From IMG/VR virus record IMGVR_UViG_3300020045_006153, positions 1 through 51,549 of that record: 51,549 bases of DNA. One strand, 5' to 3'. Origin of the DNA: a virus. Lineage: Duplodnaviria; Heunggongvirae; Uroviricota; Caudoviricetes. A program made the position numbers and the translations under genes. Below are positions 2,855 to 27,555 of this stretch, piece by piece (the stretch's first letter is position 1; each line of letters starts with the position of its first letter). Below the pieces are notes generated by a model. It was given only the letters and a program-made list of their open reading frames with translations. It made no database searches and had not been told where the DNA came from.

Positions 2855-4117
2855 ATGAATATTGTTTTTGAGAACCCTAATACTTTGCGAAATTTTGAAA
2901 ATTGTTTTGCACTAACTGCTGGATCTAATCACAGCGTATTCGACGTATCTCCTATATTTTATCATTTAATCAACGTTGATCAAGAACACAAAGGTAAATT
3001 TATACCATTAGGCATTGAAAAAATAAAATGGATTGATCATTATATAATTCCTACACATGTAGGGTATCATCCTAAAGATTGGTTAGCCAAACGTAACAAT
3101 TTAATATTTGATAATCTTAATCCTGTTTATCTAAATGATTTGAAATCCGGAAAAGCATTACTTTGCATAGACCAATCATTGGAAGGTTATCAAACATTAT
3201 GGATGTGGGATAAGATGCATTTACAATGTGGTAATGTATGCGTTCCGCCTTCTTCCCTTATTTTTATAACAGGCAATGCATTAGCACCTGTTCAGTATGA
3301 TACGTGGTGTAATGAATACGGTATCTGTAATAAAATAAAAGTAATAGCGACAGAAGTACTAGAGAACAATGTTAATAATCCAAATTTAGATATTAATTGG
3401 GATACAAATTTAAATTATAAAATTGATAACATAAATGATATTAAAACGTTTAATTGTTTAAACAAACGGAGTCGTATTCATCGAATTTGGTTTTATCTAT
3501 ACCTGTATAGATCAGGACTACTAGATAAAGGCTTAGTAACAATGAATCCTTATTCAGAAGTGCCTCCACTAGATGGACATGTGATTGATTATACACTTCA
3601 ACAAGATGGATTAAGCAAATTACCTTTATACATATTAAATCTTCCAAATGACGAGCCTGATTTAGCAAATTATCATTTTTATGTATCGAATATATTCAGC
3701 GAAATATATCAAAATAGTTGGGTGAGCATAGTACCAGAATCGACTTTTACAGAAGAGCAACTAAGTGTATTCATTACAGAAAAAACATTTAAATCTATCG
3801 CAAGTATGCATCCGTTTATAATACTAGGAGGCAGGGGCAGTTTATCGAGATTAAGGGATTTAGGTTATCGAACATTTAGCGGATTTATCGATGAAACATA
3901 CGACACTTTATATAGTGTTGATAGATTAGACGCAATTATAAATGAAATTAAACGCATAGATGCTATTGAGGATAAACTAAGTTGGTTCTTATCGATGAAA
4001 GATATCTTAATGCATAATTACAATCTGCTAATATCACGAAATCAAAAGCGGCCGCCAGCTGTTCGAGAATTACTTGATTATTATAATGATTACTTTAGAC
4101 TAGCAGATAATAAATAA
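2855..4117 (+). CDS. Putative glycosyltransferase-like protein (C-terminal ITEKT...PFI..G family)
   Basis: FNCLNK.SR.HR, SWVSIVPES, FITEKTFKSI..MHPFIILG and LGYRTF; the TEK motif recalls GT10-like GT-B folds. ATG at 2855 preferred over GTG at 2828. Confidence 0.45.
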   Translation: MNIVFENPNTLRNFENCFALTAGSNHSVFDVSPIFYHLINVDQEHKGKFIPLGIEKIKWIDHYIIPTHVGYHPKDWLAKRNNLIFDNLNPVYLNDLKSGKALLCIDQSLEGYQTLWMWDKMHLQCGNVCVPPSSLIFITGNALAPVQYDTWCNEYGICNKIKVIATEVLENNVNNPNLDINWDTNLNYKIDNINDIKTFNCLNKRSRIHRIWFYLYLYRSGLLDKGLVTMNPYSEVPPLDGHVIDYTLQQDGLSKLPLYILNLPNDEPDLANYHFYVSNIFSEIYQNSWVSIVPESTFTEEQLSVFITEKTFKSIASMHPFIILGGRGSLSRLRDLGYRTFSGFIDETYDTLYSVDRLDAIINEIKRIDAIEDKLSWFLSMKDILMHNYNLLISRNQKRPPAVRELLDYYNDYFRLADNK

Positions 4118-4121
4118 CATT

Positions 4122-4403
4122 ATGAGAGCACAAGAATTTTTAGAATCTGCATGTAATTGCAATTGCCCTAAATGTGGCAAAAGAAAGTCTGACCAAGAAC
4201 TTGCTGAAAAAGCAAGTACTTCGTTATGTCATAGTACAAAGACATTAGGGTACAGCGACCATTGTTCGTGTGTATCCCAGGGACTGCGCCCGCATTCGTC
4301 TAAAGGAAAAGGTCATACTGATGGCCACGGTAATTATACCAAAGGTAAAAAAGCCAAAGGTACCGCATACGGCGGATCAGTTAAAGATTACAGCGGCAAA
4401 TAA
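4122..4403 (+). CDS. Small Cys/His/Lys-rich protein with MRAQEFLE N-terminus (possible virion-internal protein)
   Basis: 93 aa, 7 Cys including CNCNCPKC; TAAATA box 5 nt upstream of the ATG. Confidence 0.6.
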   Translation: MRAQEFLESACNCNCPKCGKRKSDQELAEKASTSLCHSTKTLGYSDHCSCVSQGLRPHSSKGKGHTDGHGNYTKGKKAKGTAYGGSVKDYSGK

Positions 4404-4958
4404 TTATTTCCAACGTGGGAATTTAGATAAGTTTTCCAAGAACCGATCAGGGTGTATTTTCCATACAGTTTGATCGGTTCCCCTGTAATGTACTTCTGTA
4501 ACTTTCTCTACAATGCCTAACTTAGCAAGGGTAGGAAAGTAATAAGAATGTACTAGTCGTTGACTAGCAACTTTACTAGTATTGCTAGTTGCGTAAATGT
4601 TGTTGCCTTTTGTATATTCAATACATGCAGGCAAAAGAAATTGATCTGTTAGATTTTGATGCTCTGCAATTAATTTCTTAGGAGTAATTAGTCCACCGTT
4701 TTGCCTTGCTTCACCAAACGAACATGTACGTGCTAATACCCTATATGATTTTAAACCCATAATATCGAATGTGTGAGTAACTACACTGCCTATTGCTTTA
4801 TTATCTTGATATAGTATCCATGCTTTTTTGTCAGTTTCATTATTAAAGCAATCAATCATTACTTTCTGATTTTTATTATTTTCAAATCCGCGAGCATCTG
4901 CTTCTGCATAGAACTCAGTAAGATCTAGTTCTGGTGACCAATCTACTAATTTATACAT
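4404..4958 (-). CDS. Hypothetical protein, possible GNAT-like fold
   Basis: AWILYQDNKAIGSVV...YRVLAR pattern. Start moved to MYKLVDW (4958), overlapping the upstream stop. Confidence 0.4.
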   Translation of the reverse strand: MYKLVDWSPELDLTEFYAEADARGFENNKNQKVMIDCFNNETDKKAWILYQDNKAIGSVVTHTFDIMGLKSYRVLARTCSFGEARQNGGLITPKKLIAEHQNLTDQFLLPACIEYTKGNNIYATSNTSKVASQRLVHSYYFPTLAKLGIVEKVTEVHYRGTDQTVWKIHPDRFLENLSKFPRWK

Positions 4959-5643
4959 ATATTTCCTTCGCTGATTCAATAAAGTCTCTTGGATAATTGT
5001 TACTAAAACTTTCAAAACATAATTGTTGTATGTTTCTTAAATGCGTAGGAGTATCCCAATCTATTCCCATAGATTTGCTTTGTTCGCGTAATACAACTCT
5101 ACGACCTTCACTTATATGGCTTAAAAAACTATTAACAGTAATAGGAGGGTCAGTTTGATCGTACGTGAAGAAATAGTTAATGCTTTTTAACTTGCCTTCT
5201 ACAACAAAATAACTGCTTGGATGCATTGATATTTTGTATAATCCGAGATCTTTATGTGCTTGAATAATAGCAAGCATTTGTTCTTGCCAATCCGGAATAA
5301 TTTCATCAAACGAACTTTGATTATTATCTAAACTTCGTTGCCAAAAGTCTACTCCGTCGATTTCTAAATAAATTTTTCGTTGTGTATAATCTATATCTAA
5401 TATTTTTGGTACTAGATGATTATATGCACCGTGCATTTTCTGAAGAAATTTTACTTCGCGTTCCCATTTCTCGTTCATTAGCGCAGGGTCTACTACTTCA
5501 TTTTTACCTTTATGGTAATCACTATCATTAACATAATGTTGTACAAATACTTTCTTATCCTCACTAATAAGGCTTGTATAAATGAGATTGTTGCGCCAAG
5601 GTTTTTCGCCTGGTACTTGATTGAAGTAGTATTGATATTGCAT
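4951..5643 (-). CDS. Protein-kinase-like fold protein with atypical catalytic loop
   Basis: EREVKFL (alphaC), VPKILD, IYLEI, then YKISMHPSS in place of HxDxxxxN and INYF in place of DFG. Paralogue of 8684-9379. Confidence 0.55.
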   Translation of the reverse strand: MQYQYYFNQVPGEKPWRNNLIYTSLISEDKKVFVQHYVNDSDYHKGKNEVVDPALMNEKWEREVKFLQKMHGAYNHLVPKILDIDYTQRKIYLEIDGVDFWQRSLDNNQSSFDEIIPDWQEQMLAIIQAHKDLGLYKISMHPSSYFVVEGKLKSINYFFTYDQTDPPITVNSFLSHISEGRRVVLREQSKSMGIDWDTPTHLRNIQQLCFESFSNNYPRDFIESAKEIYV

Positions 5644-5712
5644 ATTTTTTGATAACCTACTATAATTTAGCATAACTACGTGTATAAACACAATCTAATT
5701 GAAGAGGATAGT

Positions 5713-6525
5713 ATGATTAAAGGTATTGGTGGTATTCCATATATTAACATGGAAGAGCATTTAGATATGGCATCATTTGATAAATTACAACCAGAAATTT
5801 ATCGAGGGTTTGCAGATGCTAGAGAGTATGCTAAAGAAGGTACTTGGATGAAACCTGGTTTTAGTTTTGATAAAGCAAGTTACAAAATAAATTGGAAACC
5901 TATATATAAAGCAATTGAAGAGTTTCTTGCGTTGCCAGACGACGATCCAATTAAACTAGGTGGTATTGATTTGTACAGAGACTTTAATGATTTTCGTGTA
6001 CGAAACCGATTTACTCGTTATGTTAAAATGGCAATGGGGGCATACGACCCTTACATTTATTACTTTCTATCTGATCAAGGTAACTGGAATGATAGAACAT
6101 CTATTCGTCCGCCGACTGCTGAAGCAGCATTTTTTCCTGGACTAGTGCAATGGGTAGAAGATTTAAAAACTAGTGGAGTATTTGAATATATCGGGCGAGT
6201 CATTTTATTTCATGTTGAATCAGACGGAGTTCCTTTTGAACATAGAGATTTAGATGCAAAGAATGGAGTGTTTGATAATGACTTATATTCACCACATCGA
6301 AATGAATTTATTCACCTACGCCCAAATACAAAAAAATCGTTCTATTTGTGGGATCCTGATACTCAAAATAAAATTCATCTTAATACCAAAGCCGCCTGGT
6401 GGAACGACCAAGATTGGCATGGTGGCGATGCAATTAAAGAACAGAGTTATAGTTTGCGCATTGATGGTAAGTTTACAGAAGAATTCCGTAAGAAGTTAGG
6501 TATTTCTCACTTGGAGAATTATTAA
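5713..6525 (+). CDS. Cupin/2OG-Fe(II) oxygenase-like protein
   Basis: PFEHRD and DWHGGD give an HxD...H metal triad; GAGGA RBS supports the ATG at 5713. Confidence 0.5.
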   Translation: MIKGIGGIPYINMEEHLDMASFDKLQPEIYRGFADAREYAKEGTWMKPGFSFDKASYKINWKPIYKAIEEFLALPDDDPIKLGGIDLYRDFNDFRVRNRFTRYVKMAMGAYDPYIYYFLSDQGNWNDRTSIRPPTAEAAFFPGLVQWVEDLKTSGVFEYIGRVILFHVESDGVPFEHRDLDAKNGVFDNDLYSPHRNEFIHLRPNTKKSFYLWDPDTQNKIHLNTKAAWWNDQDWHGGDAIKEQSYSLRIDGKFTEEFRKKLGISHLENY

Positions 6526-7019
6526 TGATTTATCATGGAAATTTTAAAGATTGGATAAAACCCGAATGGACAGATTATTGGACAAATAATACCGGATTAT
6601 TGAGGCCTGAGCAAGGTGAGACTCCTAAGGAACAATATAAAAATGCATTACATGCCGGATTGCCAACGGGAGTAACCATGTGGGAATACTTCTCATTTAA
6701 AAACTGTCCGTTTAATATAACAGAATTTCCCTTAGATAATCATAGAAATATAGTTTGGTGGGTAACTAAAATGAAGCCTGGTATGTACTGCCCGCTGCAT
6801 ACAGATGATTATAATAACGATCGCAAAAATTGCACTCGTTATTGGATGCCATTGCAAGATTATACAACTGGACATATATTTTTGTATAAGGACGAATTTG
6901 TAAAGGACTATAAAATGGGAGATATTTGGTCATTTGATAGTGCAACTGAAATTCACGGTGCAGCAAATATTGGATATATTCCTAGAATGACATTTTTGTT
7001 TACTAGTTACGATTTATGA
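6525..7019 (+). CDS. 2OG-Fe(II) oxygenase, Asp/Asn beta-hydroxylase-like
   Basis: KMKPGMYCPLHTD ... IHGAANIG..PR; translationally coupled to the upstream gene. Confidence 0.7.
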   Translation: MIYHGNFKDWIKPEWTDYWTNNTGLLRPEQGETPKEQYKNALHAGLPTGVTMWEYFSFKNCPFNITEFPLDNHRNIVWWVTKMKPGMYCPLHTDDYNNDRKNCTRYWMPLQDYTTGHIFLYKDEFVKDYKMGDIWSFDSATEIHGAANIGYIPRMTFLFTSYDL

Positions 7020-7585
7020 TACACATTTTAGATGAATTCGATGTTGATTATGCTGTACAATATTATAACGAGTTAACTCTATCTAAACAGCAATTACATT
7101 GGCATTGGTATAATGATCATCCAGATCACGATATGGTAGATCCTAAAAATAACATATTAGATATGCATGGATGGGGTCTGCAGACAATCTATAAAGATAA
7201 ACAATTTCCATATCATATTGATATTGATCCACATGATGACGGGCCAGAACTATTTACTGATACTGAACTAGTATTTGGATTTGCTAAACAATTACTCAGT
7301 ATGTATCCCTCAGGATATAGACCGTTTTTACTTGTGTTACCTCCGGGCAACTTTGTAGATAAATGGAAGCCGCCACCGTCATCACCTGTACATGATATGA
7401 TGTTTGTTCCTATTATATCAAATAATAAATGCACGTTGATGTCACACACTATACCTGTAATACAATATCAGTTGGTACCAGGGACAACAGTTTTAGCAAC
7501 TACTAACGCAGACACAGAATTACGAAATGATGGAGATACTGACTTAGTTTTTATCTTATTCAACTTACCCAAAGGATCTCTATGA
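7016..7585 (+). CDS. Cupin-like protein with degenerate metal ligands
   Basis: LPPGNFVDKWKP and TELRNDG..D.VF occupy the positions of the PG...HxD and H...N motifs of its neighbours, but the His residues are absent. Confidence 0.4.
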   Translation: MIHILDEFDVDYAVQYYNELTLSKQQLHWHWYNDHPDHDMVDPKNNILDMHGWGLQTIYKDKQFPYHIDIDPHDDGPELFTDTELVFGFAKQLLSMYPSGYRPFLLVLPPGNFVDKWKPPPSSPVHDMMFVPIISNNKCTLMSHTIPVIQYQLVPGTTVLATTNADTELRNDGDTDLVFILFNLPKGSL

Positions 7586-8127
7586 TATATATTGGAAATT
7601 ATAAAGAGTGGATTGATAACACTGGAATAATTAAGCACCTTGACTTGCACGACGGCGACACTCGCCCTGTTTATCAGCCAGACAGATGGAAAGGAGATCC
7701 TGCACTTGATGCAGCATTTGCAATTCAGCGGCCTGCATATCAACATACTAATCATGTATTTCAACAATTTAATATTAACTCTGCCGATATGAAAGACTTT
7801 CCTATTGAAATGCCAACATTGCCCGACTATGAAGCAGGCAGAAACCGATCATGGTGGTTTATTAAATTGTTGCCTGGCCAGTTTCAACCAATGCATTTTG
7901 ATCCACATTTAGTTGAAGTTAAAAATCCTGTTAGATACTCGTTCTTTTTACAAGATTGGATACCTGGTCACATATATACATGGGCAGACGGAAAAACTAT
8001 TGCAAATTATAAAGCAGGTGACATGTATCGTTGGTCAGATGCTATGTGTTATCACGGATGCGCGAATATTGGATTTGAAAATAGATATACATTTCAAATT
8101 ACAACACACGGGTCACCGATAGCCTAA
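7582..8127 (+). CDS. 2OG-Fe(II) oxygenase, Asp/Asn beta-hydroxylase-like
   Basis: KLLPGQFQPMHFD ... YHGCANIG..NR; clear paralogue of 6525-7019 (MIYxGNxKxWI start). Confidence 0.7.
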   Translation: MIYIGNYKEWIDNTGIIKHLDLHDGDTRPVYQPDRWKGDPALDAAFAIQRPAYQHTNHVFQQFNINSADMKDFPIEMPTLPDYEAGRNRSWWFIKLLPGQFQPMHFDPHLVEVKNPVRYSFFLQDWIPGHIYTWADGKTIANYKAGDMYRWSDAMCYHGCANIGFENRYTFQITTHGSPIA

Positions 8128-8691
8128 TACATGAAACATAAGTGCAGGTTTCATACTTGCGTTTATGCCGCAATGCCATTCGCGAGGACTATTCCACTTA
8201 ACTATTGCACCTTCTTTTTGATTAAACAAATAGTCTTCACCTAATATCAGGATTTGACCTGGTGCAGATTCTTCAATAAAGATGCTGTACCGTAGTATTT
8301 CACCTTGTTTTAGATATTCTGCTTCGTTATCGTCTACATCCCAATGCCACGGTGCAATAAACCCCGGATCTATTCTACTAATCCAAGATCTATGCGGAGT
8401 AATGCGTAAGTATTTGCAAACTTGTTTAGTTACGTTATTATCAAAATGGTCATTAGGGTAATAATTAGTCCATTTAATTGCAGCAGGATTAAAGTTTCCG
8501 TTTTTCCACATAGAAAAAATATCAGTATATCCCGGTGTGTCTAAATGCCATCTAGTAGGATCAGTTGTAACTGAATCACCCTCTTGAGAAGTAACATGCG
8601 CAACTACGTCATTCCATTTAACTCTGCGATATCCTCCCATATAATCACAACTTGTAAGTTTTATAAACTTTGCGGCATTGGGATTAAACAT
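8113..8691 (-). CDS. 2OG-Fe(II) oxygenase/cupin
   Basis: RIDPGFIAPWHWD ... WHCGINAS; start at 8691 overlaps the upstream stop. Confidence 0.7.
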   Translation of the reverse strand: MFNPNAAKFIKLTSCDYMGGYRRVKWNDVVAHVTSQEGDSVTTDPTRWHLDTPGYTDIFSMWKNGNFNPAAIKWTNYYPNDHFDNNVTKQVCKYLRITPHRSWISRIDPGFIAPWHWDVDDNEAEYLKQGEILRYSIFIEESAPGQILILGEDYLFNQKEGAIVKWNSPREWHCGINASMKPALMFHVLGYR

Positions 8692-9379
8692 TTGCAATCC
8701 TGTTATAAAATTCAGGAAACGGATTAACAGGCCATCTTAATGCAAGTTGTTCTTGTAAAGTAATTTTATAGAATATTTTAAAATCAACGTCGCCGTTTTC
8801 GTTCGTTGCCCTATCAAATCTATTAGTTGAATCCATTCCAATAATACCTGATAATAATTGCTTAGAAATATATGGACTATCTTTTTCCATACACGCATAG
8901 AAATCAAATGTTTTTAGAATGCCGTCTTTGATGTAAAAACAATGTGGATATAAGGATACTTTGTATGTGCCTAGGTCATCGATTTCTTTTAAAAAATCAA
9001 ACATTTGTTCTTGCCAATCAGGACATTCAGTATCTAAATTACGACCAGTTATTAATATACGATTAATAGTATCTGGATGATATTCAATAAAAACTCGACG
9101 CTTATCAATATCAACATCAATTAATTTTGGCATCCATTTTTTACCTTGAAACTTAACAAGATTTTTAACTTCTCGCTCAAAAAAGAAATCAACTAAGTCT
9201 TTCTTAAGGACACCGTACGGTCGCTTATTTGTAGTTTGATATGTATGTGTTTCATCATACAACATACACATTATGTTTTCTTCAGGATTAACAATCGGAG
9301 TGTATAACATATTAGTGGTAACTGGATTGCCGCTAACATCTAATTTGTAAAAATAATGCCAATTACTTATATCTATCAT
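8684..9379 (-). CDS. Protein-kinase-like fold protein with atypical catalytic loop
   Basis: FEREVKNL, MPKLID, VFIEY, DWQEQM, YKVSLYPHC and FDFY; paralogue of 4951-5643. Confidence 0.55.
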   Translation of the reverse strand: MIDISNWHYFYKLDVSGNPVTTNMLYTPIVNPEENIMCMLYDETHTYQTTNKRPYGVLKKDLVDFFFEREVKNLVKFQGKKWMPKLIDVDIDKRRVFIEYHPDTINRILITGRNLDTECPDWQEQMFDFLKEIDDLGTYKVSLYPHCFYIKDGILKTFDFYACMEKDSPYISKQLLSGIIGMDSTNRFDRATNENGDVDFKIFYKITLQEQLALRWPVNPFPEFYNRIANV

Positions 9380-10050
9380 AAAATTTCCAGTGTTAATCCG
9401 TTTACTAGTTTACTTTGCAGATCAGATAACAGAGATCGATCCATTTTAAATGTTGCTTCTTCGCCGTGCTCAAAAGTAAAATTTGTTAAAGAATTAGTTT
9501 TGTTTGCCCAATTTAACCATGGACTTAAAATATCATCAAACACAAATCTACCGTGATCCTTTGTAAATCCTGCTGTGCTAATTTTAACTGAAATAGGATT
9601 AGAAATAAATCCAGCCTTTAACAATTTTCGAACAACTAATTGTGTACGAACTGTTCGTCCAAAGTTAACTGCACTATGTAACTTACCAGTATCCATTTCA
9701 TACCATATGCCATCTGTTTGCAGTCTATGCATATGTCCGTGTTCTAAATCAACTAGGTACGCTTTTTCGCTTGACAGGGTTAGATGATATCTATCATCTA
9801 TATCAGCATGGCTGTGATAACATGTACCTGGTAATAAGTTAATAATACGGGCTTCACCTACTACTAATGGTAGTGTTTCATATATATCTTTCCAAATCGT
9901 ATTTTTTAATTCATCCTTTAATACCCAAGGATCATAAAAGAAATTGCCTGTTGGTTTATTAATAGCAAAACGGAAATCAGGGGAAGGCAAATTGTTAACA
10001 GCAGTTTGCAACATATTAGGTGTTACTGTATAGTGTGTTTTAATTAGCAT
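9376..10050 (-). CDS. 2OG-Fe(II) oxygenase, Asp/Asn beta-hydroxylase-like, with extra C-terminal domain
   Basis: LLPGTCYHSHADIDDRYHL ... LHSAVNFG..VR. Confidence 0.7.
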   Translation of the reverse strand: MLIKTHYTVTPNMLQTAVNNLPSPDFRFAINKPTGNFFYDPWVLKDELKNTIWKDIYETLPLVVGEARIINLLPGTCYHSHADIDDRYHLTLSSEKAYLVDLEHGHMHRLQTDGIWYEMDTGKLHSAVNFGRTVRTQLVVRKLLKAGFISNPISVKISTAGFTKDHGRFVFDDILSPWLNWANKTNSLTNFTFEHGEEATFKMDRSLLSDLQSKLVNGLTLEIL

Positions 10051-10068
10051 GTAAATATTTATATGCTA
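10045..10068. promoter_or_regulatory. Palindromic bidirectional late-type promoter
   Basis: TAGCATGTAAATATTTATATGCTA: 11 of 12 pairs complementary, with TAAATA on both strands, each 5 nt before an ATG. Confidence 0.7.
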
Positions 10069-12184: not shown

Positions 12185-13007
12185 TTTTTGTTTAATTGGT
12201 GACAAAACAGTAGCAGATACAGAAGTTAACTTTTATTCAACTGATAGTGAAGAGTTATATCAGACAAATATAAAAAGAATTCCAAATTGGATATGGAAAG
12301 ACATTCCTATTATATACAAATGGAATTCATTAGGATATCGATCAAAACAATTTGAAGAAATTAATAAACTTAATTATGGAATTGTTGCAGGATGCAGCAA
12401 TACTGTAGGTGTTGGAGTTCCTAAAGAAAAAACATTTGCAGGATTAATCGAATCTAATTTATATGTAGATATAATGAATATTGCAAAAACAGGAGCAAGT
12501 AATGAGTTTATATTCTTTAATGTACTGCATATGCTCGATAAGTTAAAAACTACACCTCCGAAATTTGTTGTTATTAACTGGACATATTTAAATCGAATGC
12601 TATGGTTTAAAAAAACAGATGATGTAGAATGGTTATTTCATTGGACTCCGAATACACCAGGATGGCCACTTAAAAATAATCTTCATGCAACTACTGAAAG
12701 TAAAATTAGCGAAATGCATTTACTATTAGATAACGATTATCATATTAACATGAAATATTTTTATTACAGAAAAACAATTCGATTAATTGCAAATACCTTG
12801 AATATTAAACTAATCGAATTTACCTATGATCATATGCAGGATAGGACTCGTATTCATTATATAAATAATAGTGCTAACAATATAAATCAACGATTTGGTC
12901 GAGACATGCAAGTATACGACCAAATCAATCCTACAAAATCCGGTGGCCATCCTGGCACCGGATTACATCAAGAAACATTTAACTATATTAACCTATGTCT
13001 AAAGTAA
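12177..13007 (+). CDS. SGNH/GDSL-like protein
   Basis: WNSLGYRS, AGCSNTVG (block I Ser), NIAKTGASN (block II) and GHPG (block V His). Start moved to 12177. Confidence 0.5.
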   Translation: MNDFCLIGDKTVADTEVNFYSTDSEELYQTNIKRIPNWIWKDIPIIYKWNSLGYRSKQFEEINKLNYGIVAGCSNTVGVGVPKEKTFAGLIESNLYVDIMNIAKTGASNEFIFFNVLHMLDKLKTTPPKFVVINWTYLNRMLWFKKTDDVEWLFHWTPNTPGWPLKNNLHATTESKISEMHLLLDNDYHINMKYFYYRKTIRLIANTLNIKLIEFTYDHMQDRTRIHYINNSANNINQRFGRDMQVYDQINPTKSGGHPGTGLHQETFNYINLCLK

Positions 13008-17717: not shown

Positions 17718-17724
17718 GAAGTAT

Positions 17725-19894: not shown

Positions 19895-20807
19895 GTCTTG
19901 CCTTTTGTTTATATAATGCTGCGCCGATTGAACTCGAACAATCCCCGGGTTTATCTAATATCCATACACTATTCCATTTATCAGTCAATGTATTTGCATA
20001 TTTTGAATTTGCCGCACATCCGCCAGTGAATACTAGATTAGATGACACTGACATATCTCTTGCTATATTCATAACTTCTTGTGCTTGTTCTTCGAATACT
20101 AATTGAACGGCCGCAGCAATATCTGCTTTGTTATTAATAGTTACTCCGTATGGCCAATCACAAACGCCTTTGTGAAAATTAACTATTAGGTTCCAATCAG
20201 CAGTCCAATATGACTTTATAAAATGATAATACCTGCGCGGATCACCATACGCACTGAGTTCTTGCAATTTATGTTCTTCTTGCAACGGAGTAAATCCGAT
20301 TAATTTAGTAAATGCACTGTAGAACATTCCAAGACTAGTTGGATATTCTCTACTCCATAGTTTAGTTAATTCTGTACCTTTACCTGCCCATATAGTTGCA
20401 GACTCCCATTCACCTATGCTATCTAAAACAATAACAGTTGCTTCTTCATATGGGGATGTTAAGAATCCAGCAGCAGCATGACTTAGATGATGATCTAAAT
20501 ATGTAATAGGTTTAGTGTGCAAATCAAACTTCTTAAGATGTACACTAGGTAATTCATTTCTATCAAATGCTAATTTATATTGACCTGCATATAGTTGTCT
20601 GCCCTTCTTTAACCAAGGGCGTTCATACCATACAATTTCATCAGGAACACCGTATGCATATACTGTGCCAAGCAGCATAATATTTAAATTCTCGTCATTT
20701 TTAATTCCAGTGAATTCGCTACTTAATCGCCAGTTCATTAGTTTACCATTCTCAACTACTGCGATACTAGCATCGTGATTGAGTGCGTTTATTCCCCAAG
20801 TAATCAT
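19881..20807 (-). CDS. Carbamoyltransferase (NodU/CmcH family), N-terminal Kae1-like domain only
   Basis: GINALNHDASIA, DHHLSHAAAGF, DSIGE, SLGMFY, GGCAAN and SSIGAA motifs; only 308 aa. Confidence 0.85.
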   Translation of the reverse strand: MITWGINALNHDASIAVVENGKLMNWRLSSEFTGIKNDENLNIMLLGTVYAYGVPDEIVWYERPWLKKGRQLYAGQYKLAFDRNELPSVHLKKFDLHTKPITYLDHHLSHAAAGFLTSPYEEATVIVLDSIGEWESATIWAGKGTELTKLWSREYPTSLGMFYSAFTKLIGFTPLQEEHKLQELSAYGDPRRYYHFIKSYWTADWNLIVNFHKGVCDWPYGVTINNKADIAAAVQLVFEEQAQEVMNIARDMSVSSNLVFTGGCAANSKYANTLTDKWNSVWILDKPGDCSSSIGAALYKQKARHVLL

Positions 20808-20899
20808 TTGTAAATATACGGATCTGTTTCGCGAAGTTTTTTAAGGCGCTTCTTAATTTCAAAATACATTCTAATGCGCTCTATAAATCGTTTAAACAT
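20804..20899 (-). CDS. Basic microprotein, 31 aa (not in ORF track)
   Basis: MFKRFIERIRMYFEIKKRLKKLRETDPYIYK*. Fills the gap exactly, overlaps the upstream stop and has ATGA coupling to the carbamoyltransferase. Confidence 0.7.
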   Translation of the reverse strand: MFKRFIERIRMYFEIKKRLKKLRETDPYIYK

Positions 20900-21488
20900 G
20901 TTGCTTTCCTATTATCATATATCGAGTATAAAGCGGTAACTTTAACTCGCCGGCCCAAATAACTTTTATATCACTTTGATGTTCAAATTCTTCTAGGCTA
21001 GTTGCTGTTCGTATATGTTCGGGTATATCGTAGTTATTGCTTTGCAATACTATTAATGAATTAAACGGAATACCACTTAACCATATATCATATTGATCTT
21101 GTGTAATATGTTCGCAACTTGTATTAATTACAATGTCAGCATCACTTCGGATTGAACACATGTCTGATGTTACTGCACGAAATCGTCCTTTCATTTCTTC
21201 TTGTTTATTCATCATAGTAGCAACTGGTTCACATGCAGGATCGATATCTATGCTGCGGATGTTTTTAATAGGGCAGTGACTTTGGAATAACATACTTGCA
21301 AGTGTGCCTACCCATCCGCCGTGTATATCGACTGATGCATTTTGCAACACATAAGGACGAAGATGGTTAATCAGCCATTCCTTACTCGTTAGTTGTCCTT
21401 TCCAAAATGCATCTAGTGTTCGGTGTGGATCATTACTTTCACGTATAGCCATCATCCAATAGTGTAAATGGTCTGTATCAATTAACAT
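20892..21488 (-). CDS. Class I SAM-dependent methyltransferase-like protein
   Basis: VDIHGGWVG (motif I-like), IRSIDID (acidic motif II) and VINTSCEH. Confidence 0.7.
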   Translation of the reverse strand: MLIDTDHLHYWMMAIRESNDPHRTLDAFWKGQLTSKEWLINHLRPYVLQNASVDIHGGWVGTLASMLFQSHCPIKNIRSIDIDPACEPVATMMNKQEEMKGRFRAVTSDMCSIRSDADIVINTSCEHITQDQYDIWLSGIPFNSLIVLQSNNYDIPEHIRTATSLEEFEHQSDIKVIWAGELKLPLYTRYMIIGKQHV

Positions 21489-22464
21489 AAATTGGTATTA
21501 CTTTCTTTGTCATATTTGCTTCGAACATGCACCAACATTCAGTACGCTCGCATTTTGCAGGTTCGATAAGGGGTTGAAATTTTTCTTTAAAATTAGCATC
21601 GAAGATGTTGTATTGTTCTTGTTTTCCATATAGTTTGTTACTGCATAATCCAGTTAATGTGCCGTCCATTCTAATAGCAATCCAATCTATTCCTAAATTG
21701 CATTCCCAACCGTTAAAGTTGTTTAGTTTATTATGAATAATTTCGTGATCTTTTAACTTGTGAGTTTTACCTGCTTCATCTACTACTCGAACATTGCTAC
21801 GGCTGCTCTTATTGTTTTTAAAGAACCAAAACAAATTAGGACTTCTTGCTCGTCCTTTATTCAATATTGCTTTCTGTTCATCTGTGTACTTTACTTTGCT
21901 TTGTTCGACTATTTCCATATATCGAATACTCCAGCGATGCTTACTTGTTGTGTAATAGTTCACATGTGACATGCAAGTATCCCATGCAAATGGATCCATT
22001 AAAACAATAGTTGTAACGATTACATTCTTTTCATATAGCAAGTCAGCAACATTACTAAGGTGTACTGGATCTACAAATTCATGATGACTACTCAGAATAA
22101 CATAATCTAGATACGGAGCCATTTCTTCCCACCAACTTAGTTTCTTAGTCCCATTAGTGGTAAGTGTAAAGATGCAGTTATATCTAGTTTTAAAATATAC
22201 AATAAACTCTTGAAACTTCTTCCAATGTGTTATTTCGCCGCCCATTACATGAAAATCGAACTTTGTCTTACTGGTCATTTCTATATAATAATCAAGCATA
22301 TGTGACAAATTCTCAACGAACGAATCAAAGTCGGGCCATTTAATATCACCCGTATTACATCCGGGGAAACAGTACCAGCACTTATAGTTACAGATGTTAC
22401 CTATAGTAAGATCTATACGCATTGTGTCTTCTCGCCAATTTTGTTTTACTTCTGTTATATTCAT
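21478..22464 (-). CDS. Radical SAM protein (sub-family C)
   Basis: CNYKCWYC, GGE, TTNG; C-terminal WEC...LC...KCERTECWC. Confidence 0.9.
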   Translation of the reverse strand: MNITEVKQNWREDTMRIDLTIGNICNYKCWYCFPGCNTGDIKWPDFDSFVENLSHMLDYYIEMTSKTKFDFHVMGGEITHWKKFQEFIVYFKTRYNCIFTLTTNGTKKLSWWEEMAPYLDYVILSSHHEFVDPVHLSNVADLLYEKNVIVTTIVLMDPFAWDTCMSHVNYYTTSKHRWSIRYMEIVEQSKVKYTDEQKAILNKGRARSPNLFWFFKNNKSSRSNVRVVDEAGKTHKLKDHEIIHNKLNNFNGWECNLGIDWIAIRMDGTLTGLCSNKLYGKQEQYNIFDANFKEKFQPLIEPAKCERTECWCMFEANMTKKVIPIYVN

Positions 22465-23441
22465 TTTTGTTTTGGTATTTTACTATCAGCGGAACTAACA
22501 CACGATGGAGTTATACATATAGTGGGAGATTTAAATAGTTGGAAGCCCGCATCTAGCGTACCTAGTATTTGATCATGACAACTATAACTACGTTTTACTT
22601 CATTAGACTTTATTATAACACTTTGATAGCCGCTGTTGCAAGTCCATCCTTTAAATTTATTAAATCCAAATGCATTAAATCGTTCGGCTTGATCAAATTT
22701 ATATTCTACATTATTCTTGTCATATAATGATATTTGATATAATTCTTCTCCGAATGCATTTTGTGGAAATCCTGTTTGCATTATATTAATCATCTCATCA
22801 GTATATCCACTTACTACACTACTTGCTGTAGGATCACTTTGTGGTTTCAATGTTACGTTAATTCCCCGTTTGTTAAATCGTTGCAATCGTTCGTAGTATT
22901 CCCAAAAGAATTCAGGTACCATAACTTGGTTAATAGTAACGTACACGTTCTTATCTATCAAGTTGATAATTTTATCACCAAATTCTTGTTCTTTTGCAAA
23001 CTCTGCATGATAGGACGCAGTAATACTTCTGCGAGCAAGCATACTTGTTGCATCGGCCCAATTATTCCACCATTTAATACTAGGACTAAGGTTAGTGGTC
23101 ATATGAATACTTTGATACGGAGTAATAATTCCGTCATCTAAGTATTTGGTTAGTTCGAGCAAGTGCTTATATGCAGTTGGTTCTCCACCGCTGAAAGACC
23201 AATGAAACTTGTTAAATCCGTTTGCTCTTGCTTGCCTCTTGATTTCGTCTATTGTAATTTTATATACTTCAAGAGGGTGGTGATCGGGCGTATCAGATCG
23301 TGCATATGGCCAGCAATATGAACAATTGTAATTACAAAATCGACCGAGTATCCAACTAACCGAAAATAGATTAGATTCGAGCATTGTTCTTTGTCCGAAT
23401 CTAACAATGTTATTCCAGGGTATGTTTTGAAAATTGTTCAT
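22461..23441 (-). CDS. Radical SAM protein (sub-family C)
   Basis: CNYNCSYC, FSGGEPT, TTN; C-terminal WTC...SC...ICITPSC. Start uncertain (23441 or 23459). Confidence 0.9.
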   Translation of the reverse strand: MNNFQNIPWNNIVRFGQRTMLESNLFSVSWILGRFCNYNCSYCWPYARSDTPDHHPLEVYKITIDEIKRQARANGFNKFHWSFSGGEPTAYKHLLELTKYLDDGIITPYQSIHMTTNLSPSIKWWNNWADATSMLARRSITASYHAEFAKEQEFGDKIINLIDKNVYVTINQVMVPEFFWEYYERLQRFNKRGINVTLKPQSDPTASSVVSGYTDEMINIMQTGFPQNAFGEELYQISLYDKNNVEYKFDQAERFNAFGFNKFKGWTCNSGYQSVIIKSNEVKRSYSCHDQILGTLDAGFQLFKSPTICITPSCVSSADSKIPKQK

Positions 23442-24438
23442 GTAACCATTCAAAGTCATTTATCTTATATAAATCAGAGGCATGTTCTTCACCATATGCT
23501 TTGCCTTCATTAGCACCGATAATTGCCCATTCACCAAATGCTGCACCGTTGTTTATTGTACACCAAGTGTCTAGTCTGTGTTGATTTTCTGAAGATATAT
23601 CTCGATTAATTATTCCACTAGAAAGTTTTGCACATTCTCTAAACGCAGATCTCCATGTAGAGAATGCATCAGTATTGAATGCAGTAATATTACTTACTTC
23701 GTCCATTGCATTAAACTTTAGACTTAAACTCGTTGTCATATCAACTGCAGACTCTTCTACTGCAAGCGTTTGCTTGCGTGGTAATAATTTTGCGCCACCA
23801 TATCCGTATTCTAATCCGTTTATAGGATTCTTACTGCGCCAAACATAAACGCTATCAAAGTCCCATCTGTATATTGCATGTTTAAATTTAAATGTATCAA
23901 GTACCTGGGCATCTCCATCTAAAACCCAAAACATTTTAGTAGACGAAATTTTTGCTGCTGCCTTATGTGCTGCATGTATTCCCTTAATTCCGTCTACCCG
24001 TTTAGCATACGGTACTTGGGTGAGCAATTTTGCATAATTATCATTCGCATTTAATTCACCGTAACTAATAAAAATTACATCGTCGGGTCTTTCAATTGCA
24101 GATGCTATATTAATTATTTTTGTGTTATAAAAGAAATTGTAATCTCTTTCATCATTTGTAATTTTTGCAGTCTTTGAAAGTAATGCTACTCCGACATCGT
24201 CTTCTGTTAATTTGAATACATGCTTATATATTTTATCGACATCATTAACTTTATATTCAAATTTAAAATCGTCTAACGGAATAATACCAGCCGGTACTAT
24301 CCAACACATAGTAGTAAATGATTTACGTAATGCTTCTTGATATGTTTCTACCCGTTTAGCAGTTGGATATTTTCGTTTAAACAATGTAAATTGTTCATCT
24401 ATTTCGTCTTTATGTCGTATGAAGAAAATATCGTACAT
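23410..24438 (-). CDS. Glycosyltransferase-like (GT-A) protein with duplicated N-terminal module
   Basis: VIFISYGE, RVDGIKGIHAAHKAAA and FWVLDGDA (DxD); the N-terminus YDIFFI...KRV is a degenerate copy of the same module. Confidence 0.55.
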   Translation of the reverse strand: MYDIFFIRHKDEIDEQFTLFKRKYPTAKRVETYQEALRKSFTTMCWIVPAGIIPLDDFKFEYKVNDVDKIYKHVFKLTEDDVGVALLSKTAKITNDERDYNFFYNTKIINIASAIERPDDVIFISYGELNANDNYAKLLTQVPYAKRVDGIKGIHAAHKAAAKISSTKMFWVLDGDAQVLDTFKFKHAIYRWDFDSVYVWRSKNPINGLEYGYGGAKLLPRKQTLAVEESAVDMTTSLSLKFNAMDEVSNITAFNTDAFSTWRSAFRECAKLSSGIINRDISSENQHRLDTWCTINNGAAFGEWAIIGANEGKAYGEEHASDLYKINDFEWLHEQFSKHTLE

Positions 24439-25325
24439 TATTTTCTCCTAACAATACGGTCTGAATTTTGATACAACTTCTTAAAGAATTTAGAGCCATC
24501 ATCATCTAACGTTGAAATTTCTAATCCTAATCGTTTTAACTTAGATCCGTATTCATTTAATTTTTCATCAAGCATATAAGAATCAACATGTTGCTCTTTC
24601 CAATATTGTGTTAAGTAATCAAAGTCTCGTACTTGTGCATAATCCCAATCAGTACAGTTTGTTAAGTAACATCCTTCTCGAGCACCTAACATTGAATATA
24701 CACCTTGCTCAACATCTGCGCCTACATTGCACCACACTAATAATCTATCATAGTTCTGCCACCAAATTTTCTTCAAGTTAGAAACCTTGTGTCCTTGATC
24801 TAACGACATTTTAACCCCTTCACGAAATCCAGCACGCCACGCCTGAAAAGGAGAACCGTTCGTAAAACTCTCCGAGTAACTTTCGTTAAATTGATAGTAT
24901 CGCTTGTCAAAACAAAACTCAACTTTGCCTGCAACATCGTTTGTGTCGGAATTCTCGTGAGTACGCATGTTGTTGACAAAATCTTTTGTCCACATCTTTA
25001 ATCCACCGTTTCCGTACATTAAATTGTTAACATGTACCTTACCACACCAACTAAACACATTTTCAGCAGTAAGATTTAATTTAGTTAAATCAATTTCAAC
25101 CTGCAGAAATTTTGGATCAATGATATTATCTGCATCAACTGTAACAAAGTAATCAGTTTCACTAATTGCTGCGCATGCCTTGTGTGCAGAATCACTACCT
25201 TTTACACCATGCACTCGTTTAGCCCATGGTACTTTTTTCTTTAAGTCTGCATAGTTCTTCTCGGCATTTGCTTCATCATAACTTAGAAACACTATGTCTT
25301 GTTCGATTATTTTTATTTTACTCAT
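24438..25325 (-). CDS. Glycosyltransferase-like (GT-A) protein
   Basis: DIVFLSYDE, RVHGVKGSDSAHKACA and FVTVDADN (DxD); paralogue of 23410-24438. Confidence 0.55.
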   Translation of the reverse strand: MSKIKIIEQDIVFLSYDEANAEKNYADLKKKVPWAKRVHGVKGSDSAHKACAAISETDYFVTVDADNIIDPKFLQVEIDLTKLNLTAENVFSWCGKVHVNNLMYGNGGLKMWTKDFVNNMRTHENSDTNDVAGKVEFCFDKRYYQFNESYSESFTNGSPFQAWRAGFREGVKMSLDQGHKVSNLKKIWWQNYDRLLVWCNVGADVEQGVYSMLGAREGCYLTNCTDWDYAQVRDFDYLTQYWKEQHVDSYMLDEKLNEYGSKLKRLGLEISTLDDDGSKFFKKLYQNSDRIVRRK

Positions 25326-25882
25326 TTTACAATTAGTTTATATTTGCTGAATACTGGAGTTGTTACTAACTTGATTTTTGTAATGTCTGCTTCTAGTACG
25401 TGTTCAAACGGAATATATACAGGTCCGTTTTCAAACGATACGTTGAGTTGTCGAATCAAAAAATCTAAATTGTCTTCTAATACTACATAAAAATGCAATA
25501 TAAAATGTAAAGAATATTTTGCAATAACATTATTGCTTAATTCAAATTGCCATCCGTTTTTATTCCATGTTATAGTTACATCTGGATCAATCTCAACACT
25601 ATCAATGATTTTAAATCTGGAATGTGCCCAATCTGGAATAATTTCGATTGGTTTCTTAACAATATCATTTCCTTCAACTTTGTATTCGCTTGATATTAAT
25701 GTGCCATTAAGAAACCCTTTTACCTTACTATACGTTGTTACTAATATGTTATTAATTACATCAGGTAATATATGTGAAATAGATATAATGTTTCCAGTTA
25801 CATCAGTAACCACATAATATTGAGTAGGAGCAGTTAGTTTATATATAACAGCAATATCGTCTTCAGATAATTTATATTCCAT
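25322..25882 (-). CDS. Hypothetical protein
   Basis: Coupled ORF inside the operon; start moved to MEYKLS (25882); no recognised motif. Confidence 0.6.
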   Translation of the reverse strand: MEYKLSEDDIAVIYKLTAPTQYYVVTDVTGNIISISHILPDVINNILVTTYSKVKGFLNGTLISSEYKVEGNDIVKKPIEIIPDWAHSRFKIIDSVEIDPDVTITWNKNGWQFELSNNVIAKYSLHFILHFYVVLEDNLDFLIRQLNVSFENGPVYIPFEHVLEADITKIKLVTTPVFSKYKLIVK

Positions 25883-26717
25883 TTGATAATTCCTCAAGTG
25901 TTGATAAAATAGTCGGGGTTATAAAACATTTATCAACGTAATGAAATACCGCAGGTTGCTTAATATTTCCAATATATAATTGCCCACGTTTGTTAAAATT
26001 CCAAGGAATTGCATTTGTCCAACTTTCTGCATTAGTTTGTGTCCATCCTTGCACTTGTGGTTTCATATGAACAAATGTCAATGGCGAACACACATCAATT
26101 GCACTATATTGTAAACCTAACATTTCAATTGCAATCGCAGCCGCAAGATCCATGCTTAACCAATTCTGCCAACGAATCGGTGCAAATTTACTGTAACATA
26201 GTTCCCAATTATTAGTAATAAATTCTAATGTTTTGTAAAATTCATATGCAGTTTCGCTTTTCTTAAAATAATGTAGTGCAAAATACGGATTAGTTAATTT
26301 GTTTTCTACAAATGTTGCTCTGTGTATTAAATCGGAATTGATTGTCTCTAATTTGTGATTCATTACATTAGAGCAAAATTTAATATCATAATTTGAACAA
26401 TACTCCCACCATGGTGAAATATCATCCAGCAACAACATATCAGTATCTAGTACAATTGTTTCGTCGTATGGCGATGTATGATATAGTTTCCAACGATTTT
26501 CAACTTTCCATTTAGTATTAGCAGCATTATCATTCCATGGAATTTTAATCACTTTATCAAATACTTTTAAATATTCAGTTGGTATAGGATCGTTTGTTAC
26601 AATGGATATATTTTTAACTGCTAACTGAGTGGCGTTAATCGATAGTGCAAGTGCATATGCTTGATCAACATAATTTACATCGCTATTTTGAGCAATAACT
26701 AAAAATCCTTTAGTCAT
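25872..26717 (-). CDS. Glycosyltransferase family 8-like (GT-A) protein
   Basis: YALALSI, SPYDETIVLDTDML (DxD) and late HMK/HY motifs. Confidence 0.6.
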   Translation of the reverse strand: MTKGFLVIAQNSDVNYVDQAYALALSINATQLAVKNISIVTNDPIPTEYLKVFDKVIKIPWNDNAANTKWKVENRWKLYHTSPYDETIVLDTDMLLLDDISPWWEYCSNYDIKFCSNVMNHKLETINSDLIHRATFVENKLTNPYFALHYFKKSETAYEFYKTLEFITNNWELCYSKFAPIRWQNWLSMDLAAAIAIEMLGLQYSAIDVCSPLTFVHMKPQVQGWTQTNAESWTNAIPWNFNKRGQLYIGNIKQPAVFHYVDKCFITPTILSTLEELSNGI

Positions 26718-27555
26718 TTAATTCTCCAATCACTCGTGCTAGGCTGTATTTGTTCATGACATGCACATCTAGGCCCGAAGTCTTTGTCATTATATATTCG
26801 CCTTTATATTCTTTCTTTTGCAATAAAATTTGCATATCAGTATCATTAATTGCATGTAACACATCAACATCAAGAGAATATGTCATTTTTCCCGGCAACT
26901 CAGTTGCAAAATTGCCATTAGTTTTTCCATTCATGATATGTATGGCAATGCTAAATGCAAAATCATTTCTAAACAGTGGACTCTTGATACAATACAATAC
27001 TCTAAAGTAATTCCAGTTAGCCTTGATATATCCAATTAATTCAAATAATGCTTCTGTTGCAGGCGTCTTTTCAAATATGAATGCAGTTGCCCAATAAAAT
27101 GGAATTGACTGATCGTTCACACGTTTAAAATAATCAGTAGACCGCCATTCGGCTAAATCTAAACATTCTTTATATATTTGAAATTCAGCAGAGCGAGATA
27201 GCGCTGGCTTTAACACATCGGAGTTAATAATATAGTCACTATCTATAACTAATGTTTTGTCGTATGGTGTAAGATTATACACATGATTACGAGTTAAATT
27301 TTTCCACTTCAATCCTGTTTTAAACAATATACCATCGTGAAACAATTTAATATTAGATGTAGCAGACTCAGACGGAATTTTGATGATTGATTGAAAGTTA
27401 TTATTTGGATATACATCCATGTCTTGTGCTTCGTCAGTTACTAATGTAACTGGAATATTAAGAAACTTTGTAATACGACTAGCAGCAAAATTTGCTAAGT
27501 TAATATAATCAACACCGTCATTGTTGTGTGCAAAGATTAATGCACCTGTGCTCAT
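26710..27555 (-). CDS. Glycosyltransferase family 8-like (GT-A) protein
   Basis: TPYDKTLVIDSDY (DxD), FRNDFAFSIA and HVMNK; paralogue of 25872-26717. Confidence 0.6.
   Translation of the reverse strand: MSTGALIFAHNNDGVDYINLANFAASRITKFLNIPVTLVTDEAQDMDVYPNNNFQSIIKIPSESATSNIKLFHDGILFKTGLKWKNLTRNHVYNLTPYDKTLVIDSDYIINSDVLKPALSRSAEFQIYKECLDLAEWRSTDYFKRVNDQSIPFYWATAFIFEKTPATEALFELIGYIKANWNYFRVLYCIKSPLFRNDFAFSIAIHIMNGKTNGNFATELPGKMTYSLDVDVLHAINDTDMQILLQKKEYKGEYIMTKTSGLDVHVMNKYSLARVIGELND

Follow-up and report, generated by a model that had tools for sequence, protein, structure and literature searches.

A conserved tailoring island with nine radical SAM genes in an uncultured freshwater T4-type jumbo phage and its possible role in sugar editing

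The DNA considered here comprises positions 1 to 51,549 of the IMG/VR record IMGVR_UViG_3300020045_006153, and this whole stretch of 51,549 nucleotides is called the window below. Its most prominent feature is an enzyme island at 2.8-29.1 kb of the window, which encodes about 30 soluble enzymes, including nine radical S-adenosylmethionine (rSAM) proteins, and forms a block of about 25 kb. The complete record is 353,233 bp long and is rated 99% complete by CheckV; the window is its first 51.5 kb and begins at the contig end. A match to the gene of the T4-type capsid protein Gp23 is located at 258.5 kb of the same genome, with the main structural block at 258-279 kb. The source phage is an uncultured freshwater T4-type jumbo phage. 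The G+C content varies between 32 and 42% in the window. Small shares of the sequence were present in four freshwater DNA sequencing runs, with no RNA run among those listed. A megablast comparison of 14 kb of the island with 50,697 phage records gave no match and revealed no near cultured relative.

The island is a real and conserved tailoring island (Table 1; genes are designated by their first position). Its open reading frames (ORFs) overlap or abut throughout, in agreement with the tight gene coupling described in the initial annotation, which had been made from the letters of the window. The island end at 27555 proposed there is not correct, and the real end is at 29092. A minus-strand unit of 15 kb contains 17 genes, the first of which is 27971. 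None of the island proteins has a convincing membrane segment. A scan of 20 proteins against PHROGs, 19 of them island proteins, left 19 without a match.

Three units of the island, those of 2828, 9376 and 27971, are headed by exact copies of TATAAATA. The copies are located at 2790-2797 before 2828 and at 29127-29134 before 27971, and the third ends 5 nt before the ATG of 9376; a near copy precedes 10063. The starts of 9376 and 10063 diverge and are 12 nt apart (window 10044-10066), and mirror-image TAAATA boxes are found 5 nt upstream of each ATG. This distance indicates that the leaders of both transcripts would be very short or lacking.

Table 1. Predicted genes of the island and the large transferase gene outside it. 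Fractions of 80 viral loci refer to the second set of loci described in the text.
Feature	Position	Strand	Basis
GT-B-type glycosyltransferase-like protein, g2828 family	2828..4117	+	AF2 model, Foldseek
Small ORF, 93 aa, Cys-rich, Gly/Lys-rich	4122..4403	+	Sequence; not found in related loci
Conserved 203-aa protein, fold not recognised	4404..5015	-	Found in 5 related loci
Protein-kinase-fold protein	4951..5691	-	Paralogue of 8684-9379, blastp 8e-20
Highly conserved 281-aa protein, candidate iron oxygenase	5680..6525	+	Invariant HRD...H in alignment
Small AspH-like cupin hydroxylase	6525..7019	+	Invariant H92, D94, H144; profile match to Cpz10 7v4f
189-aa protein with HxD motif	7016..7585	+	Sequence only; in 5 related loci
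Small AspH-like cupin hydroxylase, paralogue	7582..8127	+	Alignment; profile match
Small AspH-like cupin hydroxylase, paralogue	8113..8697	-	Alignment; paralogy
Protein-kinase-fold protein, paralogue	8684..9379	-	Paralogy; family profile
AspH-family hydroxylase-like protein	9376..10050	-	Invariant H81, D83, H125; sub-cut-off Asp_Arg_Hydrox match
Compact fold-type-I pyridoxal phosphate (PLP) enzyme, class I/II aminotransferase type	10063..10938	+	AF2 model, Foldseek, alignment
rSAM protein, family A, NF033640	10922..12184	+	342 bits; Radical_SAM at residues 122-283
SGNH/GDSL-like protein (weak)	12126..13007	+	Invariant G-C-S block and His
rSAM protein, family B, C-terminal twitch-like Cys motif	12995..13891	+	Pfam 51.9 bits; paralogy
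115-aa ORF, no assignment, not conserved	13888..14235	+	Absent from relatives
rSAM protein, family B	14232..15215	-	Pfam; paralogy
rSAM protein, family A, NF033640	15212..16624	-	385 bits
rSAM protein, family C, CQASCPMC	16617..17717	-	Pfam 24.4 bits and identity to 18812-19894
rSAM protein, family B	17725..18819	-	Pfam; paralogy
rSAM protein, family C	18812..19894	-	Pfam; paralogy
NodU/CmcH-type carbamoyltransferase, Kae1-like N-domain only	19881..20807	-	Pfam Carbam_trans_N 116 bits
Conserved Rossmann, methyltransferase-like protein; core rSAM partner	20892..21488	-	Glycine-rich and acidic motifs; locus conservation
rSAM protein, family B	21478..22464	-	Pfam; paralogy
rSAM protein, family B, best kept in Bdellovibrionales (up to 52%)	22461..23459	-	Pfam; locus comparison
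GT2-like DxD protein	23410..24438	-	Paralogue of 24438 (blastp 2e-26); invariant D64, D66
GT2-like DxD protein	24438..25325	-	DxD; paralogy; homologues in viral loci
191-aa ORF, no assignment	25322..25897	-	No matches
GT8 (glycogenin-like) glycosyltransferase	25872..26717	-	Family profile; invariant D93
GT8 (glycogenin-like) glycosyltransferase, paralogue	26710..27555	-	Family profile; paralogy
116-aa protein travelling with the GT8/GT2-like cassette	27552..27902	-	Homologues in 17/80 viral loci and in contig L071
373-aa Cys-free phage-only protein, 19% Ser+Thr	27971..29092	-	Composition; Atlas neighbours
1576-aa multi-domain transferase, GT4 + GT2 + Anp1-like + FkbM methyltransferase	45416..50146	+	Pfam; outside the island

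The CX3CX2C motif of the SAM-binding 4Fe-4S cluster is present in nine ORFs between 10.9 and 23.5 kb. Eight of them score 31-52 bits with the Pfam model Radical_SAM (PF04055), above its gathering cut-off of 29.5 bits; the ninth, 16617, remains under the cut-off, yet is 43.7% identical to 18812, which passes it. All nine possess extra Cys clusters, recognised as an N-terminal Pfam SPASM domain in 10922 and 15212 and as C-terminal Cys motifs in the other seven. Thus, the prediction of nine rSAM proteins with auxiliary Cys clusters was correct. The proteins form three paralogue families: A with two members (NF033640), B with five (CNYxCxYC) and C with two (CQASCPMC). Both family A proteins match the NCBIfam model NF033640 (N_Twi_rSAM, twitch domain-containing radical SAM protein; curated cut-off 170 bits) over positions 1-397 of its 398 positions. 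The SPASM match occupies residues 9-69 of 10922 and 31-110 of 15212 and precedes the Radical_SAM domain, i.e., the auxiliary Cys domain is N-terminal. In an alignment of such N-terminal-twitch (N-twitch) proteins, residues C31, C49, C50, C107 and C110 are invariant ahead of C164, C168 and C171.

The median identity of each paralogue to its orthologues in related phages is 58-77%, as against 21-44% between paralogues. Since each paralogue has its own orthologue, the duplications are old, and expansion of the paralogues in situ was rejected. A complex prediction for 15212 and 14232, a recurrent pair of families A and B, returned a score of 0.00 and gave no verdict. The tblastn search with the rSAM proteins among the 50,697 phage records found remote matches only, in Sinorhizobium phage Phosso, Ralstonia phage RsoM2USA, Vibrio phages K566/K567, Campylobacter phages CP220/CP21/F379 and Pelagibacter phage Mosig; the annotation of the matching region of RsoM2USA is entirely hypothetical. 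In the literature, no paper was found that characterises or assigns a reaction to any of the three rSAM families, including NF033640 with its N-terminal twitch, and none on SPASM rSAM proteins in Bdellovibrio or on twitch rSAM proteins acting with nucleotide sugars.

The genetic linkage of the rSAM genes was analysed in 42 IMG/VR loci fetched with 15212, whose homologues are 66-80% identical over the best aligned segment. All 42 loci carry reshuffled versions of the island. Families A and B are present in 41 of them and family C in 38, with a median of five rSAM ORFs per locus, and the accompanying genes include a methyltransferase-like gene of the 20892 type (33-35 loci), the PLP gene (25 loci) and a 9376-like hydroxylase gene (22 loci). 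Despite the reshuffling, certain ordered pairs recur, in A-then-B and methyltransferase-C-A-B modules. The 20892-like gene is directly upstream of a family C gene in 19 loci and C is followed by A in 17; 10922 is followed by 12995 in 17 loci, and 15212 by 14232 in 16 and by 21478 in 10. The order PLP-then-A was found in 11 loci. Co-occurrence across related genomes had been suggested initially as a check on the island, and a lack of conserved linkage as a ground for refuting it; the linkage proved to be strongly conserved.

Genes of sugar metabolism were found outside the window. The phage's own genome contains a deoxy/branched-sugar operon at 110.2-117.9 kb (locus L131, 4226-11867), including two RmlD-like genes, RmlC, a 4,6-dehydratase, a split pair of thiamine pyrophosphate (TPP) E1-like genes, DegT, GT34, GT17 and a methyltransferase. 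The initial statement that no nucleotide-sugar synthesis genes were recognised concerned the window, and the objection of missing nucleotide-sugar genes is therefore void at the genome level. Besides, a third N-twitch rSAM protein (460 aa) is encoded at 157.3-158.7 kb and is flanked by 4,6-dehydratase-type genes of short-chain dehydrogenases/reductases (SDRs) at 154.5 and 164.5 kb. The same locus (154.5-165.5 kb) holds conserved neighbours of 283 and 411 aa without assignment and a ClpP gene. In a related phage, represented by the 265-kb contig G001, an orthologue of the third rSAM protein with 62% identity belongs to a single gene run that also contains two g2828-like and three SDR genes, an RmlC-like gene and the two TPP halves, and in locus L026 the order is rSAM, g2828-like, SDR. 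A second set of 80 viral loci was chosen solely for carrying the third N-twitch rSAM gene. Nucleoside diphosphate (NDP)-sugar genes occur in 21 of these loci, in seven of them within 800 bp, and the GT2-like family of 24438/23410 in 47, GT8 in 40, g2828-like genes in 15 and the carbamoyltransferase in 10. The gene families, their mutual linkage and their linkage with sugar genes are matters of direct observation.

Counterparts of the array were also found on bacterial chromosomes. When the N-twitch alignment was scanned against prokaryote genomes, one for each species, 179 relatives were obtained; the best 80 of the 179, for which gene contexts were taken from precomputed Pfam annotation, belong mostly to Bdellovibrionales, often with several copies per locus. 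At least 11 consecutive rSAM genes on a 2.9-Mb chromosome of Bacteriovoracaceae are accompanied by GT2, PMT_2 and FAD oxidoreductase genes and by further GT2 genes. On a contig of Pseudobdellovibrionaceae, two GT2 genes are followed by three rSAM genes and a major facilitator superfamily (MFS) gene. One Bdellovibrionales contig has the order GT2, GT2, SDR, carbamoyltransferase with DUF5989, SDR, N-twitch rSAM, three rSAM and GNAT, and another contains three rSAM genes, a class-V aminotransferase, a GDSL-like gene and a carbamoyltransferase with DUF5989. A NodU-type carbamoyltransferase gene lies within 10 kb in 10 of the 80 bacterial loci, and homologues of the island PLP, methyltransferase-like, GT2-like, GT8 and carbamoyltransferase genes are present as well. 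Four contigs binned as bacterial, L114, L122 (a Haliscomenobacter metagenome-assembled genome), L071 and L048, carry a phage-type cassette, many g2828-like paralogues and almost no Pfam-annotated genes; they may be mis-binned phage DNA.

About five glycosyltransferase (GT)-like proteins had been counted initially. The GT8 pair, 25872 and 26710, gave no match with Pfam; their family profile matches glycogenin-1 and -2 in the PDB with E 5e-7 to 5e-5 over positions 5-112, and D93, with which the DxD motif begins, is invariant. The AF2 model of 2828 is of medium quality (pLDDT 61) with a confident C-terminal domain, and its top 50 Foldseek matches in the PDB are all GT-B proteins, e.g., WaaG, SdgB and FUT13. 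Paralogues of 2828 occur in the sugar operons of relatives. As for 23410 and 24438, the available data point weakly to GT2. Outside the island, the 1576-aa transferase is encoded by a single ORF directly after three Ser/Thr-rich fibre-like genes (34222-44912).

Among the other enzymes, six cupin or 2-oxoglutarate oxygenase-like proteins had been listed initially. The HxD...H iron triad is invariant in the family alignment of 6525, 7582 and 8113, and the profile of these small cupins matches the beta-hydroxylase Cpz10 (7v4f) with E 2e-3 and the 9376 family with E 1e-5 in hhalign; 9376 itself scores 18.1 bits with Pfam Asp_Arg_Hydrox (PF05118), below the cut-off of 22.6. Of the remaining two, 5680 is a lead: a feature match in the Atlas connects it with AspH-family clusters and hhalign relates it weakly to the small cupins (E 0.008), with no relation to the 9376 family, and 7016 has a sequence motif only. 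In several relatives of the phage, five to seven small AspH-like cupin paralogues of 165-240 aa are encoded in tandem (L005/L042, 1375-5002; L012, 209-5216; L001, 2152-6089), as compared with three in the window.

The two kinase-fold proteins of the initial list were confirmed, as the 4951/8684 family profile matches the kinases TTK and Bud32 at about E 1e-4. The PLP enzyme was confirmed by its fold: the AF2 model of 10063 has a pLDDT of 90, and Foldseek finds AAT, HisC, CobD and C-S lyases with E 1e-8 and probability 1.0. Its Schiff-base K195 and pyridine-binding D167 are invariant; the protein is some 80-100 residues shorter than typical matched members (350-400 aa), and its gene is translationally coupled to the following rSAM gene 10922. 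The carbamoyltransferase was recognised in part, since 19881 covers only positions 117-346 of Carbam_trans_N and has no YrdC-like C-domain. A full-length carbamoyltransferase with the C-domain (573-aa frame) is encoded at 282.5-283.0 kb of the same genome, which makes the 308-aa island protein a truncated paralogue. Judging by its sequence, it would work like a part of the NodU/CmcH/TobZ family and not as a complete member. The methyltransferase assignment of 20892 agrees with its motifs, with no library match, and the SGNH assignment of 12126 with an invariant G-C-S block and weak matches of its family to GDSL esterases in the PDB (E 0.1-0.5). The GNAT label given to 4404 found no support, as no Pfam, PHROG or PDB-profile match was obtained. 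Searches of PDB profiles with the families of 5680, 24438, 20892, 2828 and 4404 returned nothing usable. The small ORF 4122 has seven Cys residues in its first half and a tail rich in Gly, Lys and His.

A protein to be modified may be encoded next to the enzymes. The Atlas neighbours of 27971 are all viral and have no known fold, and its product is a candidate acceptor or virion protein. Three fibre-like genes (34222, 39207 and 42066) encode Cys-poor proteins with 23-25% Ser/Thr, and collagen repeats are present in 39207-41741. In five related phage records, no homologues of the collagen-like fibre gene and of the 1576-aa transferase were found. The neighbourhood of the fibre-like genes also includes an HNH endonuclease gene (33578-34174, minus strand) just before the first of them, a phage homologue of IF-1 (infA; 33098-33316, plus strand), which is kept beside the rSAM array in 12 related loci, and an ORF resembling staphylococcal nuclease, hydrophobic in a segment at its N-terminus (44821-45357, plus strand), which overlaps the end of the 948-aa fibre-like gene.

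Taken with some reserve, as its probability is put a little below one half, the explanation preferred here is that the enzymes of the island act in the cytoplasm as a soluble pathway, in which a sugar-type molecule is built and edited. What is said below on the chemistry, the succession of steps, their timing and the acceptor is what we infer from the gene content. Sugar precursors would probably come from the phage's own deoxy/branched-sugar operon; this operon and the sugar operon of the relative with its N-twitch rSAM gene suggest thymidine diphosphate (TDP)- or guanosine diphosphate (GDP)-4-keto-6-deoxy sugars as candidate substrates. The two GT8, two GT2-like and one GT-B proteins would attach sugars, and the nine twitch/SPASM rSAM proteins, organised in A-then-B and methyltransferase-C-A-B modules, would subject the sugar or its substituents to a series of radical reactions, possibly epimerisation, deoxygenation/dehydration, oxidation or C-C branching. 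Hydroxyl, phosphate, amino-acid-like, methyl, carbamoyl and acyl groups may be introduced or removed by the AspH-like, kinase-fold, PLP, methyltransferase-like, carbamoyltransferase and SGNH-like proteins. A macromolecule that is made by the phage and modified late in infection is the probable acceptor; a virion protein is the first guess, favoured by the late-promoter motifs only. A narrower proposal, possible and on the whole rather doubtful, is that families A, B and C together with the compact PLP enzyme and the methyltransferase-like partner form a modular radical editing line that performs consecutive steps on nucleotide-sugars or on glycans attached to virion proteins. If true, this would be a new class of glycan chemistry common to aquatic jumbo phages and predatory Bdellovibrionota.

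Several observations weigh against this explanation. None of the nine rSAM proteins reaches the cut-off of a characterised rSAM subfamily in NCBIfam. Within 10 kb of the core array in related phage loci, counterparts of the NDP-sugar genes of the present phage were found in none and the GT2-like family in only 2-3 loci, and the linkage with sugar genes is strongest for the third N-twitch rSAM, which is located outside the island. Only for this third protein is the sugar link direct; for the core array it runs through shared families and bacterial contexts. The PLP enzyme belongs with the amino-acid aminotransferases and not with the DegT sugar type, and for AspH-like and kinase-fold enzymes protein substrates are as common as sugars. 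Large Ser/Thr-rich ORFs are neighbours of the core array in only 6 of 42 loci, a frequency lower than their density in the phage's own genome, and of the array in 46 of the 80 loci of the second set, so that fibre adjacency is not a conserved property. The late promoters of the initial annotation correspond to the exact TATAAATA copies at the three units, but the window as a whole has no excess of the motif (9 found and 10.9 expected), and for this reason late timing is no more than plausible. The first of the initial hypotheses, an elaborately modified glycan built on virion fibres, gains support in its sugar part from the Bdellovibrionales contexts, the G001 operon and the phage's own deoxysugar operon; its fibre part is no more than a possibility, given the 6 of 42 loci and the five relatives without homologues of the fibre genes.

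Other acceptors and substrates should be weighed against this sugar pathway. Direct post-translational modification of phage proteins would be a chemistry like that of ribosomally synthesised and post-translationally modified peptides (RiPPs) on full-length virion proteins: rSAM and AspH-like enzymes would alter side chains or backbones (cross-links, epimerisation, hydroxylation), kinases would phosphorylate and transferases would then glycosylate. Most characterised SPASM/twitch rSAM proteins are peptide maturases, many of which are among the partial NCBIfam matches, and proteins serve as substrates for AspH, glycogenin-type GT8 and protein-kinase folds alike. The neighbours of the 2828 GT-B model include the Ser-O-GlcNAc transferases SdgB and GtfA, the PLP enzyme is of the amino-acid type, and collagen-like and Ser/Thr-rich fibre genes are within the window. 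Nevertheless, this explanation seems unlikely. None of the nine rSAM proteins contains a RiPP recognition element (RRE) or PqqD-like domain, and their NCBIfam maturase matches are all far below the cut-offs. No conserved small precursor ORF (4122 and 13888 are absent from relatives), protease, exporter or transporter was found in the island, so that the marker genes of RiPP maturation, another of the initial hypotheses, are lacking. The fibre-like proteins are Cys-poor, which counts against thioether links, their adjacency to the array is not conserved, and the bacterial counterparts stand beside GT2, SDR and carbamoyltransferase genes and not beside peptide genes. A similarly small probability is assigned to remodelling of a host envelope glycan (lipopolysaccharide (LPS) core, O-antigen or capsule) in infection, for instance as a superinfection block. 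GT8 is the classic family of LPS-core transferases, and LPS is also the substrate of AspH relatives (LpxO) and of kinase-fold enzymes (WaaP, KdkA). In Bdellovibrionales, the clusters that contain GT2 and PMT_2 resemble loci for envelope glycans. Such remodelling was argued for the GT8-rich islands of pelagimyophages (Zaragoza-Solas et al. 2020; PMC7029224). However, the island encodes no flippase, polymerase, ligase or membrane protein, and the late-type promoter motifs suit virion assembly better than early host conversion.

A free small molecule, aminoglycoside-like or nucleoside-like, produced in the infected cell is an improbable product. The mix of twitch rSAM, carbamoyltransferase, kinase-fold, PLP, transferase and small AspH-like proteins parallels aminoglycoside and nucleoside antibiotic pathways, Cpz10, the best solved match of the small-cupin profile, is an enzyme of caprazamycin biosynthesis (PMC9814697), and one bacterial cassette ends in an MFS transporter gene. 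However, the likeness is at the class level only, genes for export or resistance are lacking in the phage island, and the presence of GT8 and of the multi-domain transferase suggests a macromolecule as acceptor. Least credible is hypermodification of phage DNA or RNA bases. T4-type phages commonly glycosylate their DNA, and the combination of kinase, PLP, rSAM and transferase genes resembles, at the class level, the thymidine-hypermodification clusters of M6/ViI-type phages. But the genome contains a single thymidylate-synthase homologue (PF00303, 332 bits, as ThyA) and no match to TGT/DpdA (PF01702), P-loop DNA kinase and amino-acid:DNA transferase not having been searched for. The DNA/RNA hypermodification suggested initially lacks these marker genes. 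Moreover, the island kinases are of the protein-kinase fold and not P-loop proteins, the same cassettes occur on bacterial chromosomes beside GT2 and SDR genes, and the DNA was assembled from ordinary metagenome data.

The nearest published description of this type of island is the host-recognition cluster of pelagimyophages and cyanomyophages, a hypervariable island of aquatic T4-type phages, situated between VrlC and the neck gene gp14, with fibre genes, glycosyltransferases (GT8 being the commonest), rSAM cassettes, which are mentioned in passing only, and AspH-like hydroxylases, and with no proven function (PMC7029224). The present island resembles it in the T4-type phage background (Gp23), the fibre-like genes, transferases and rSAM cassettes, and the reshuffled synteny. 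It differs in belonging to a 353-kb freshwater jumbo phage, in its nine rSAM genes of three defined families, and in the early-type genes (ligase, IF-1) that part the island from the fibre-like genes. Several rSAM genes are also present in the cultured T4-type Campylobacter phages CP220/CP21/F379. Their homologues of families B and C are distant (24-25% identity), no N-twitch match was found in them, and, besides this very remote homology, the roles of their rSAM proteins are also unassigned. NF033640, which two island proteins match over its full length with scores about twice the cut-off, is a named family that is abundant and multi-copy in Bdellovibrionales and has no assigned substrate or reaction.

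Among characterised pathways, DesI/DesII of desosamine biosynthesis combine a PLP enzyme and an rSAM enzyme acting on a TDP-sugar, and BtrN of the butirosin pathway is a twitch enzyme. The island resembles them in outline, in the PLP and methyltransferase genes beside rSAM, the twitch-type auxiliary cluster and the linkage with 4,6-dehydratase-type genes. Unlike these enzymes, its proteins show no sequence membership, its PLP enzyme is not of the DegT/DesI type and the twitch domain lies at the N-terminus. The capsid glycans of chlorovirus PBCV-1 and the fibrils of mimivirus are examples of virion proteins glycosylated in the cytoplasm by virus-encoded enzymes. Soluble virus-encoded transferases, multi-domain proteins joining GT and methyltransferase, sugar-nucleotide enzymes and collagen-like genes are shared with these systems, in the present case as genes alone, and the glycosylation systems of PBCV-1 and mimivirus are not known to use rSAM arrays. 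New in the present study are the phage's own deoxysugar operon, the third N-twitch rSAM between dehydratase-type genes and the N-twitch rSAM in the sugar operon of a relative.

Aquatic T4-type and jumbo phages devote 5-10% of the genome to such islands, and Bdellovibrionales possess several copies of the same families. Should they prove to edit sugars, these families would represent a large set of new radical carbohydrate reactions, and many environmental phages would have elaborately decorated particles or would re-decorate their hosts, with consequences for host range, phage recognition and enzyme discovery.

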